64,000 bases of DNA from an uncultured Cryomorphaceae bacterium (GTDB lineage: Bacteria > Bacteroidota > Bacteroidia > Flavobacteriales_D > Cryomorphaceae), in assembly GCA_963836915.1 (NCBI GenBank), contig CAWILH010000002.1:19010-83009 (forward strand), written 5' to 3'. Position numbers and translations under genes: made by a program. Every line of letters starts with the position of its first letter. Position 1 is the stretch's first letter. Below, in pieces: positions 10,211 to 12,646 of this stretch. The notes beneath the pieces are model-generated. The model did no database searches. It saw only the letters and a program-made list of their open reading frames with translations, and was not told where the DNA came from.

Positions 10211-10500
10211 AGATTACGCCACACAATAACTAAGTATTCGTCCCGCCGATAGGCCAGGGATGAATATCTTGTTGACGAATCCGTTCTTTGTCTATGGGGA
10301 AAGCGTTGCTCTAGGATATTGTTTGTGAGAACTTCTTGACTGATGTGTTATGTGTTAGTGACGATATCTAAACTCCAACACTTTATTTTCATGACCAAGT
10401 TCTAAGTATTTCTGTTGCATAGTGGGTTTTCAACCTGTTTATCAGCTTAATACGTATCGTCTACGCATAACTTTCCCGCTTCGCATTCTGCAAGTTGGTT

Positions 10501-11633
10501 TCATTGATCATTATCAAACGATAGTAATTCCTTCCAACCAATAGGCGGGCCGCGTTGGCCAAAAGTCATGACAGTAACCAGTTTCCCTTTTTTGCAACTT
10601 GGACATCTGTTATGAAGCATGGGGGGCTTCTCCGCAGCATCTTTTATAGCCACAACAGCAAGCATTTTTTGAAGCCTTGGCAGCTTCTTTTTTTTCCAAC
10701 CGCTACTCAAGAGACCGTAATGCCTTGTTCGTGTGAAGCCTTTGGGTAAAACATGCAAGGCAAAACGGCGTGTGAACTCATGTGTTGAGAGCTTTAACAC
10801 TTCCTCCTTACCACCTTTCTTGTAATTTTTTGTGGTGAACAATACGTCGCCTTTTGCTTTATCAATCTGCTTGATCCGGTAATTGCTGATGGCGATTTTG
10901 TGGGTGTACCGACCCAGATATTCCACCACATACTTTGGAGAATGGAACTGCTGTTTTGCATACACCACCCAGTTTTTAGAGAAGAGCTTATTGTATATTT
11001 CCTGTGAGACAAGAGCCTTGCTTTGACGTAGCAGAGCGACATATTTTGCACAGAACACCTTACTCATTGATTTCACGTTAAAAAGATATTTCCCCTTGTT
11101 CTTTGCCGACTTCCATTTGCCAGATTTAGTCACGCCACCGCCCGGCACAGGACAGTACAGGTGTGGATGCAGGGTAAGCTGCTGTCCCCATGTGTGAAGG
11201 ATGGCAATCATCCCTGTTTGTGCTCCCAGGTGTTTTGCGTCGTGGCCAAAGGAGTTGAGCGTGCTCCATGCCGCTGCAAAGAGGCTGGCGTAAACGGCTT
11301 TGGGCTCGTGCATCGCGAGCTGGTTAAGCTCCGATGGCAGTGTGAATACCACATGGAAATACGGCACCGGAAGCAAGTCCTGCTCCCGGCCGCGATCCAT
11401 TCTTCTCGCTTGTGTCCCTGGCACTTTGGGCAATGGCGGTTACGGCAACTGTTGTAGCTCACCTGCACCGTTCCGCATGATGTGCATGCGTCTTTATGCC
11501 CGCCCATGGCGGCGGTGCGGCAGCGCATAAGCGCCCCGAGGGTGCGCAGTTGCCACCCATTGATGCCCTTTATAACGGGCACCTGCGACCAGTGCGCACG
11601 AAGCACATCAGCCACTTCGTATGTGGGGCGCAT
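10501..11633 (-). pseudogene. IS91-family (HUH/Y2) transposase, frameshifted near 11390
   Basis: Zn-binding CTSC/CRNRHCPKCQ, YFHVVFTLP, HPHLY (HUH with H>Y) and YLGRY motifs across ORFs 11208-11726 and 10501-11433. The indel may be an assembly error. Confidence 0.85.
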
Positions 11634-12548
11634 TAGCTTTTTGCGTAAAGCCGCTCCAGCGGACTGAAGGGTTTTGCTCTCCCGTTTTGTGCCACGTGTA
11701 GGTACACCAGCGTAGTATCGATGCACTCGTGCCCTAGCAGATCTTTGATGCTCATTATGTCGAGCCCTTCTTCGAGCAGGTGCGTGGCATAGGTGTGGCG
11801 CAAGGTGTGCACCGTCATTGGCTTAATGATACCGGCAGTTTTGCGGGCTTCATTCACTGCCCATTGCACGCCTTTTTGAGAATAACGGCTGTCAAAACCA
11901 CCGCCTGCACGGTCATCTACGGGCTGCTTACCGTTAAATGGCCAATCTACCGGGCACTCCGAAGCGATGTACGCTTTGAGTCCTTTAATGAGCAGGTCGC
12001 AAAGGGGAACGTACCTATCTTTTTTGCCTTTTCCTTTGCGCACGTGGAGCATCTTGCGGTCAAAGTCCAGATCGGCAAGCTTGAGATTGCGCACTTCAAA
12101 GCAACGCAGCCCGCAGCCGTAGAGCAGCCCAATGAGCACGCGGTGCTTAAGTAGCGTGGCGCCTTCATCAAGCGCTTCACTTCATCACGACTCAGTACAA
12201 TGGGCAGCTTCTTATCCTGCTTGATACTCGGAAGGGCCACACGGGCTTCCTGCAACCCACTGATGCGAAAGGCATCACGTAGGCCATACACGGTAAATTT
12301 AAAGTAACTCTCCGAAGGTGTTTTGTGTTCCTGCTGCATCAAGTGCAGGTAATCATTGATCTGGTCTTCAGCCAGTTCAGTAGGCAATTGGCCAAAATGC
12401 AGGGCACGCTTGGCCACATGGTGGCTGTAGTTTTTGAGCGTACTCTCGCTCTTTCCCGAGATGCTCATCCGTTGCTGCATGAGTCCATACAGGCCGTCAA
12501 ATCCGGCTACTTCGGCGCAGGCACGGTCAATCAGATTCTTTTTTTCAT
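11633..12548 (-). pseudogene. Tyrosine recombinase with N-terminal SAM-like domain; two frameshifts (~12540 in an A-run, ~12153)
   Basis: GLR, KGK, HTLRH, LGH and catalytic Y are all present. Its TAA overlaps the transposase ATG (TAATG). Confidence 0.85.
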
Positions 12549-12646
12549 CTGTGTAAGATTTAAAGGTTTAAGCCCTAAATTTAGCCCATGCCCGAAAGCT
12601 TACCAAGAGAAATAACGCTGACTAAACTACCGAAGGTTTCGTGCAA

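Follow-up and report, generated by a model that had tools for sequence, protein, structure and literature searches.

An IS91-family insertion sequence encoding an IntI-like recombinase appears to target attC-like sites in cassette arrays of Bacteroidota

A 64,000-nucleotide (nt) stretch of contig CAWILH010000002.1 (assembly GCA_963836915.1, positions 19,010 to 83,009) from an uncultured Cryomorphaceae bacterium, here called the window, carries a complete insertion sequence (IS) of the IS91 family at positions 10227-12646 on the minus strand. The element is 2,420 bp long, its ends being defined by comparison with relatives, and it has the two-gene organization of ISWz1, with a tyrosine recombinase (YR) gene upstream of the gene for a Y2-HUH transposase. 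Insertion into attC hairpin sites by this IS91-family clade is strongly supported by comparison of the copy with its relatives. We consider it probable that the window holds an ISWz1-like copy from a clade that inserts at the AA|C of the attC inverse core (R''), and that the joint is made by HUH rolling-circle transposition in which the target mimics the origin end of the element. The literature searched contained no account of IS91-family elements that target attC, most subscription journals and ISfinder notes being outside the reach of that search.

The insertion point can be read directly from the window. Removal of 10227-12646 brings GCCACACAA (10218-10226) against CAACGCATATAGC (12647 onward), and the sequence restored in this way, GCCACACAAC, is fully complementary to GTTGTGTGGC at 9650-9659; either motif is unique in the 64 kb. 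On the plus strand, GCCACACAA is the 5´ part of the inverse core and its last base, C, is found at 12647, on the far side of the element. The rest of the split attC-like site occupies 12647-12769 (plus strand, including repeat D5) and consists of a C-AAC spacer, L'' (GCATATAGCTTATGGCG), L' (CGCCACAAGCCATATGC) and R' (G|TTAGCA at 12763). This remainder, taken as 12647-12775 (site c), folds at -20 kcal/mol (z = -3.3), a value that none of 200 shuffles equalled. The body of the cassette whose attC was entered spans 9651-10226 on the plus strand, with an open reading frame (ORF) ending at 10210. It is opened by the R' (G|TTGTGTGGC) of an upstream attC-like site at 9526-9659 on the same strand, the R'' of which is GTGCCTAAC. 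In its own orientation the element begins with TTGCACGAAACC and TTGTGTGG follows beyond its end. The GC content of the element is 49%, compared to 35-37% in the flanking cassettes. The original prediction had placed a unit that starts with TTGC and is followed by TTGT exactly at the AA|C of an attC-like inverse core, and both statements are borne out by the 10-nt complement restored on deletion, by the folding of the remainder and by the sequences at the two borders.

Relatives of the transposase number in the thousands, and many lie on contigs about as long as the IS, as is typical of multi-copy repeats. We gathered 101 loci and used about 57 independent insertions, with TnpA 42-74% identical, for analysis of the flanks; the patterns for finding the ends were derived from the same data to which they were applied. 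Four right-end calls (L080, L082, L096, L098) were spurious and were set aside, as was a false motif match in L091, whose genuine end was kept. The flanks read ...TG|IS|TTR..., with TT[A/G][G/T] next to the right end. All 57 unique right flanks (57/57) have A or G at +3, and 48 of them have G at +10, while 53 of 55 unique left flanks have G at -1 and 51 have T at -2. With a pattern that did not look ahead, TT was found after 54 of 56 genuine right ends. Neighbouring intact attCs carry an uninterrupted ...TG|TTRR once, so the insertion is not accompanied by a target duplication. The TG is part of the target rather than of the element, since the left flank of locus L005 ends in GA. Every informative relative is found at the AA|C of an inverse core and is inverted relative to the cassettes. 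As judged from these flanks, the clade inserts in attC site- and orientation-specifically across independent events, by rule and not by chance. This agrees with the earlier suggestion that the unit targets attC hairpins, and with the expectation that homologues would likewise have their ends at the AA|C of inverse cores: the rule recurs in the ~57 independent insertions. The ends of proteobacterial and acidobacterial relatives could not be defined, and the attC rule is therefore claimed for the Bacteroidota-type clade and a few cases from Nitrospirota and Thermotogota.

A simpler account would be an ordinary IS91-type insertion at a frequent TTG-type tetranucleotide that lies in an attC by coincidence, and TTRK tetranucleotides are indeed common in AT-rich DNA. 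However, conservation of the flanks reaches well past the tetranucleotide, and three features of cassettes are strongly enriched over controls. In 25/57 cases the right flank has its exact 9-nt inverse complement, with C as the last base, 0.4-2.7 kb farther along, compared to 0.9% of mismatched control pairs, and the end of a convergent ORF lies at most 90 nt away at 40 of 51 sites compared to 12% of controls. In a simple and crude constrained folding test, an attC-like fold of -12 kcal/mol or lower was obtained for 20 of 46 left flanks and for 69 of 600 control TG|TTR sites (Mann-Whitney p = 1.5e-6). Insertion of homologues at random TTG-type sites with no enrichment of hairpins, the pattern that the original prediction had set against targeting, is contradicted by these comparative data, and we regard a coincidental location in attC as extremely improbable.

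The transposase gene (10501-11633, minus strand; PF14319 and PF04986) scores 413 bits against NF033538, which has a cutoff of 125. The HPH motif (H156-P157-H158) and the YxxxY motif (Y239...Y243) are invariant in an alignment of 21 sequences (A1). The protein thus has the HUH motif, the pair of catalytic tyrosines and the zinc-binding N-terminal domain that mark the IS91 family, and the element itself has the corresponding properties of the family, i.e. no target duplication and an ori end beside a target tetranucleotide that resembles the one at the ter end. The YR gene (11633-12548, minus strand; PF00589 and PF13495) encodes an IntI/XerA-like recombinase without the IntI-specific insertion and is found directly upstream of tnpA in nearly all 101 loci, including those from other phyla. 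The two genes overlap by one base, the stop of the YR gene and the start of tnpA sharing the TAATG at 11631-11635; the coupling was noted in the original prediction and the overlap is also kept in relatives.

All catalytic residues of the recombinase, R, HxxR, H and Y, are present in its translation and in alignments to PDB entries (GLR, HTLRH, LGH and LVY). Its best models are archaeal XerA/'integron integrase' and the IntI model TIGR02249, both under their cutoffs; the match to TIGR02249 has 173.6 bits in two stretches (cutoff 265) and that to NF011946 has 113.9 bits (cutoff 435). Similarly, the match to VchIntIA (PDB 2a3v; E = 1.8e-33) consists of two stretches that skip the IntI-specific insertion, residues 183-245 of the 2a3v chain being opposed by only ~30 residues of the YR, such that the IntI-specific domain is lacking. 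This two-stretch match agrees with the placement by Smyshlyaev et al. of the recombinases of IS91 elements in an 'integron-like' subgroup without the IntI insertion. By these comparisons the YR is IntI-like, yet it is no IntI according to the curated models.

The two ends of the element differ in structure. The right, oriIS-like end (10227-10292, minus strand) terminates in ...CTTAGTTA and comprises an imperfect hairpin and a subterminal inverted repeat with complementarity to the left end, GGATTCGTCAAC (plus strand 10271-10282 as GTTGACGAATCC). The left, terIS-like end (12631-12646, minus strand) is TTGCACGAAACCTTCG and opens with a TTG tetranucleotide resembling the target. A hairpin had been proposed at each end. 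That at the right end (10235-10266) stands, with a folding energy of -12.2 kcal/mol (z = -3.0; 0/200 shuffles as good) and with covariation among relatives. That at the left end (12621-12642) is no better than shuffles (z -0.5 to -0.95), and at this end only the sequence is conserved. Throughout the Bacteroidota-type clade the left end reads TTG[A/C/T]AC[T/G]AA, which is kept even in distant phyla, and the right end has the order ...CCCATAG, subterminal ...CGTTCAAC, bulged hairpin and ...CTTAGYT[A/G].

When the last 66 nt were joined to the first 16 nt in 31 distinct elements, the subterminal repeat paired with the left end and the hairpin was seen to be kept by compensatory changes. Cells at paired positions were 87.7% paired, compared to 72% in shuffled and 28-41% in slid alignments, and the covariation score was 0.373 compared to 0.084, with four pair types at several pairs. 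The joined ends form an attC-like structure, in which an R-like stem and spacers of 5 and 7 nt are combined with an L-like stem that contains a bulge and a conserved A-C mismatch, and in which the junction reads N|TTGAAC. The complementarity between the ends could equally result from the binding of a protein to both of them in double-stranded DNA.

IS91 itself provides a model for how the joint could be made. Its oriIS is adjoined by a target tetranucleotide resembling the terIS cleavage site, and it has subterminal palindromes, causes no duplication, and carries an upstream ORF with a stop that overlaps the tnpA start (PMC13181058). The earlier statement that IS91 ends mimic their target tetranucleotide matches these rules, and the accompanying remark that the role of the upstream recombinase in the family is unclear is correct. 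By analogy, the transposase would cut at the junction between the ori end and the flanking TTRK, i.e. on the 3´ side of YAA in the strand antisense to tnpA, and would make a second cut at the left end, which carries the look-alike TTGA or TTGC. The freed strand could then be attached 3´ to the YAA of an attC whose top strand is single-stranded or folded, the attC being selected as a mimic of the element's own ori with its YAA | C/T-AAC, short spacer and imperfect hairpin. The coupled YR, placed where IS91 has the small regulator Orf121, may help to recognize or hold hairpins, or may resolve or excise copies. We favor the HUH transposase as the enzyme that makes the joint because recombinase-free IS91 elements already show the same geometry.

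Several points weigh against this HUH-based mechanism. The enzyme responsible for the joint is one that we infer, and the strand polarity is carried over from the IS91 model. The coupled YR belongs to the group closest to IntI, and the joined ends give a GTTRRRY-like core, which is G|TTGAAC in about half of the elements. Strong constrained folds are absent from about half of the left flanks, and most loci are metagenomic contigs, in which assemblers can mis-join across a 2.4-kb repeat. A joint made by the recombinase would yield the same junctions, and both models fit them.

One possibility along these lines is that the element is a cassette encoding its own recombinase. The HUH enzyme would make a single-stranded circle with joined ends that fold like an attC (subterminal repeat ...CAAC, spacer, bulged hairpin, spacer, G/A|TTGAAC), and the IntI-like YR would recombine this circle at the G|TT of a resident attC. 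The inverted orientation would result from use of the resident top strand by the YR. Such a cassette would account for the IntI-like character of the YR, for a junction structure conserved through compensatory changes with its crossover where IntI cuts its own sites, for a target that coincides exactly with G|TT in a core-type sequence, and for both insertion products being attC-like hybrids again. However, canonical IS91 elements have the same geometry of ends and target with no recombinase, the YR is devoid of the IntI insertion that binds extrahelical bases of attC, the terminal base is A instead of G in half of the elements, and the reaction needs the strand that IntI avoids. On balance we see the self-encoded cassette as possible and rather unlikely, and retain HUH rolling-circle transposition as the preferred reading.

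The original prediction went further and suggested that the unit could be the engine of the array, building and shuffling it as a mobile, IntI-independent equivalent of an integron. In favor of this role, almost no complete integrons were found in Bacteroidetes with IntegronFinder 2.0, and canonical IntI is almost unknown in the group (PMC9024848). In Riemerella, attC-like cassettes are mobile through a recombinase yet to be named, a resistance gene whose 3´ region resembles attC having been shown to integrate independently of homology, by a mechanism left open (PMC13148043, 2026). The IS itself encodes an IntI-like YR, and such arrays, those with resistance genes among them, often contain it. 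Against this role, the IS is a multi-copy element whose position within arrays varies and which was not found at array heads, and since it splits R'' from L'' the attC that it enters should be crippled. In addition, the window array has one copy only, and this is frame-broken.

Canonical IntI was found neither in 33 kb of the window nor in the 3.5-kb flanks of 80 loci, where only IntI-like YRs under cutoff were detected. A second type of IntI-like YR, with an N-terminal extension, occurs near three insertions. A 347-aa form of this extended YR is 82-93% conserved across Flavobacterium species and scores 200 bits against TIGR02249, below the cutoff. In two Flavobacterium genomes (L103, 9001-19044; L104, 9001-17979) it is followed by arrays of small ORFs in the same orientation, with no transposase beside the YR. 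The canonical attC-like sites in these arrays have the order R'' (...YAAC), AGC, L'', L', 6-7 nt and G|TTRYRS, and an attI-like ...TATATAC[A/T]AG|TTA lies directly past the stop codon of the 347-aa YR. The Flavobacterium YR and its array look like a chromosomal integron-like platform that would escape finders based on IntI, and the 347-aa protein is more likely to be the array recombinase than the IS-borne YR is. Arrays headed by a separate and conserved recombinase speak against the IS as their engine, a role that we now find very doubtful.

The plasmid p63039 of Myroides odoratimimus (L102; NZ_CP013691.1, 40786-59841) illustrates the behavior of the IS among resistance genes. Four YR and IS91 units lie among cassettes with tet(X2), catB, aadS (twice), blaMYO-1, blaOXA and a GNAT gene, and a unit consisting of the aadS cassette with an IS in its attC is tandemly duplicated. 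IS copies that are scattered within arrays and interrupt attCs behave as parasites. The platform recombinases could insert the IS in trans by reading its attC-like ends as a cassette site: in its own orientation the IS has the layout of a cassette, with a TTGAAC start and an R''-L''-L'-G end, and recombinases of the platform type lie within 3.5 kb of three insertions. This would be expected to give the orientation of a cassette whereas all copies are inverted, and the same target rule holds in phyla with no platform enzyme seen nearby, which leaves insertion in trans highly improbable. More broadly, the IntI-like YRs without the IntI insertion, i.e. the IS91-borne enzymes and their relative at the head of Flavobacterium arrays, might be the missing recombinases of a Bacteroidota-wide, IntI-free integron system, in which the IS91-borne copy makes a self-mobile cassette that reshuffles attC cassettes, those for resistance included. 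We consider this speculative and unlikely.

The window copy of the IS may be inactive. Copies of ~95% identity in two metagenomes have an extra G after 11387 and another after 12157, from which one single-base deletion is deduced in each gene of the window copy (near 11387 in tnpA and near 12157 in the YR gene). The two deletions represent either real decay or assembly errors; a search for public reads of the source genome found none, the material being metagenomic contigs of ~95% identity. A bshC-like gene (26651-28268) and a multicopper oxidase gene (4414-6721) in the window also appear split into overlapping ORFs. This suggests assembly indel errors or true pseudogenes, and the same question bears on the frameshifts of the IS.

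A run of seven A residues near the start of the YR gene (12539-12545) is a different matter. It shows no indel in the sole metagenomic contig that covers it (X2), and a run of 6-9 A is found at the same place in 49 of 64 distinct relatives, most of which have an ATG 0-6 nt upstream. On these two grounds the run is not an error. The ATG and A7 of the window (12539-12548) are out of frame with the conserved N-terminus of the YR, and inspection by hand of three elements (window, L029 and L033) found the conserved N-terminal residues out of frame with the ATG in each. Repair of the frame at the run requires one additional A in the window and one A less in L029 and L033. The run may be a site of programmed slippage, or an A-rich leader ahead of a non-ATG start.

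The remainder of the window array gives the context of the insertion. Four pairs of motifs, each present once in the window and conforming to attC cores (G|TTRRRY and RYYYAA|C), bound cassettes: G|TTGTGCC at 227 and GGCACAA|C at 6840, GTTAGGCAC at 8202 and GTGCCTAAC at 9526, GTTGTGTGGC at 9650 and GCCACACAA at 10218, and GTTAGCAGGA at 12763 and TCCTGCTAA at 15064. Bounding pairs of this kind are also present at 25/57 related loci and in Flavobacterium and Myroides arrays. In the window, the pairs are separated by sites of ~120-130 nt with L''/L' pairing. The fold of site c and structures of ~120 nt in many loci have the features of attC hairpins, with imperfect L''/L' pairing, unpaired spacers and a length within 57-141 nt. 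The plain minimum free energy of attC-like site b is no better than that of shuffles, and this site is recognized by its core complements and L-box pairing instead. No integrase besides the IS-borne YR was found at 1-33 kb of the window, nor a complete integron with intI and attI, and the array is for this reason described as CALIN-like (cluster of attC sites lacking an integrase). Rfam, which does not contain the attC covariance model of IntegronFinder, gave no match at the gathering threshold in the whole window or in an E-value scan of 14900-16100, and a tRNA scan found no tRNA.

Three successive inverse cores of the array are occupied, by an IS110-family element, the IS91-family element and the end of a decayed group II intron (15073), respectively. 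The IS110-family element (~6850-8088; NF033542, 218 bits; tnp ORF 6900-7919 on the minus strand) separates the inverse core of the preceding attC-like site, GGCACAAC (6840-6847), from the L'' of that site, GCATATAGC (8089), and is possibly a second attC-associated IS, of the IS1111-attC type. Group II introns are found at the YAA| of inverse cores in the window (15073-~15900, minus strand) as well as in L002 (778-1283), L005 (1-140) and L022 (83-142). The intact intron of L002 matches Rfam D1-D4-3 with E = 5.7e-27 and domain V/VI with 39 bits. The window copy is decayed, with a 26-nt insertion in the domain V-like region, and given the blank Rfam result it is recognizable only through this intact relative. 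In L005 the intron abuts the left end of the IS, which mimics an inverse core.

Other features of the window are noted for completeness. A 6.6-kb copper-resistance cluster (227-6847) with heavy-metal-binding proteins, the split multicopper oxidase and an IS1595-like transposase (2876-3781) is bounded by G|TTGTGCC and GGCACAA|C, with an attC-like site upstream at ~113-233. It looks like one very large multigene cassette, a unique pair of 8-mers being weak evidence when taken alone. An IS4-family transposase gene (13331-14554; DUF4372 and DDE_Tnp_1, NF033592 260 bits) is situated inside the cassette at 12764-15072. The attC-like site a (8089-8208) has a 95-nt stretch that is 86% identical to site c (12651-12745), and its 3´ arm (CTGCGCCAAGCGCCAAAAC) is unpaired with its own 5´ arm, which gives it a chimeric look. 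Further downstream, arrays of a 14-nt unit (GTCAATTATCCATT) at 51123-51212 and 52548-52673 flank ORFs at 51218-52551, and tandem repeats of ~200 nt are found at 21986-22501. Among the relatives, the sewage contigs L016, L017, L020, L021 and L018 have identical IS copies with a common right flank (a ParE toxin cassette) but differing left flanks, and vice versa. Junction recombination as the origin of these shared right and different left flanks (L016/17/20/21; L018 compared to L021) was rejected as unsafe because short-read mis-joins are possible.

The element resembles members of the IS91 family (IS91, IS801, IS1294 and ISCR relatives, and ISWz1 and ISShvi3 with an integrase-like upstream ORF) in its Y2-HUH transposase with a zinc-binding N-terminus, the absence of duplication, the ori end beside a tetranucleotide like that of the left end, subterminal palindromes and an upstream ORF overlapping the tnpA start. 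It differs in its target, which is one position of a structured attC in one orientation and not a bare tetranucleotide. Moreover, its right-end inverted repeat is subterminal rather than terminal and is combined with a covarying bulged hairpin, and its upstream ORF is a full IntI-like recombinase rather than the 121-aa Orf121 of IS91. ISWz1 is found in resistance regions of Weeksellaceae and takes part in rearrangements of tet(X) regions, and ISShvi3 was described as 'adjacent to an attC site' in a Shewanella integron. Site- and orientation-specific insertion into the attCs of cassette arrays is shared with IS1111-attC elements of the IS110 family and with group IIC-attC introns, and in related loci a group II intron occupies the very same YAA| position as the element. 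The enzymes are different: the HUH transposase and YR of the element stand against a DEDD transposase in IS1111-attC and a ribozyme with reverse transcriptase in the introns.

Likeness to IntI and integron cassettes is seen in a YR of the IntI-like group, in the G|TT crossover of a GTTRRRY-type core and in joined ends that likewise have an R box, unpaired spacers and a mismatched or bulged L box. The element departs from them in that its YR lacks the IntI insertion, it is inserted at R'' rather than R' and in inverted orientation, and it encodes a rolling-circle transposase. Elements of the IS200/IS605 group such as IS608 also use an HUH enzyme, single-stranded DNA end hairpins and a target that mimics their own cleavage site. 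Unlike the present element, they encode no recombinase, their enzyme is of the Y1 type and belongs to a different family, and they recognize a short linear sequence where the present element uses an attC hairpin.

In conclusion, the clade would represent a third, mechanistically different class of attC-homing mobile element and, because it carries a close relative of IntI, it bears on the relationship between integrons and single-strand transposons. Well-formed arrays of attC cassettes occur commonly in Bacteroidota, a group in which finders detect almost no integrons, and candidate recombinases can now be named for them. The same IS is present four times amid the resistance cassettes of a clinical plasmid from Myroides, and the question of which enzyme underlies cassette acquisition in Riemerella is made directly testable.

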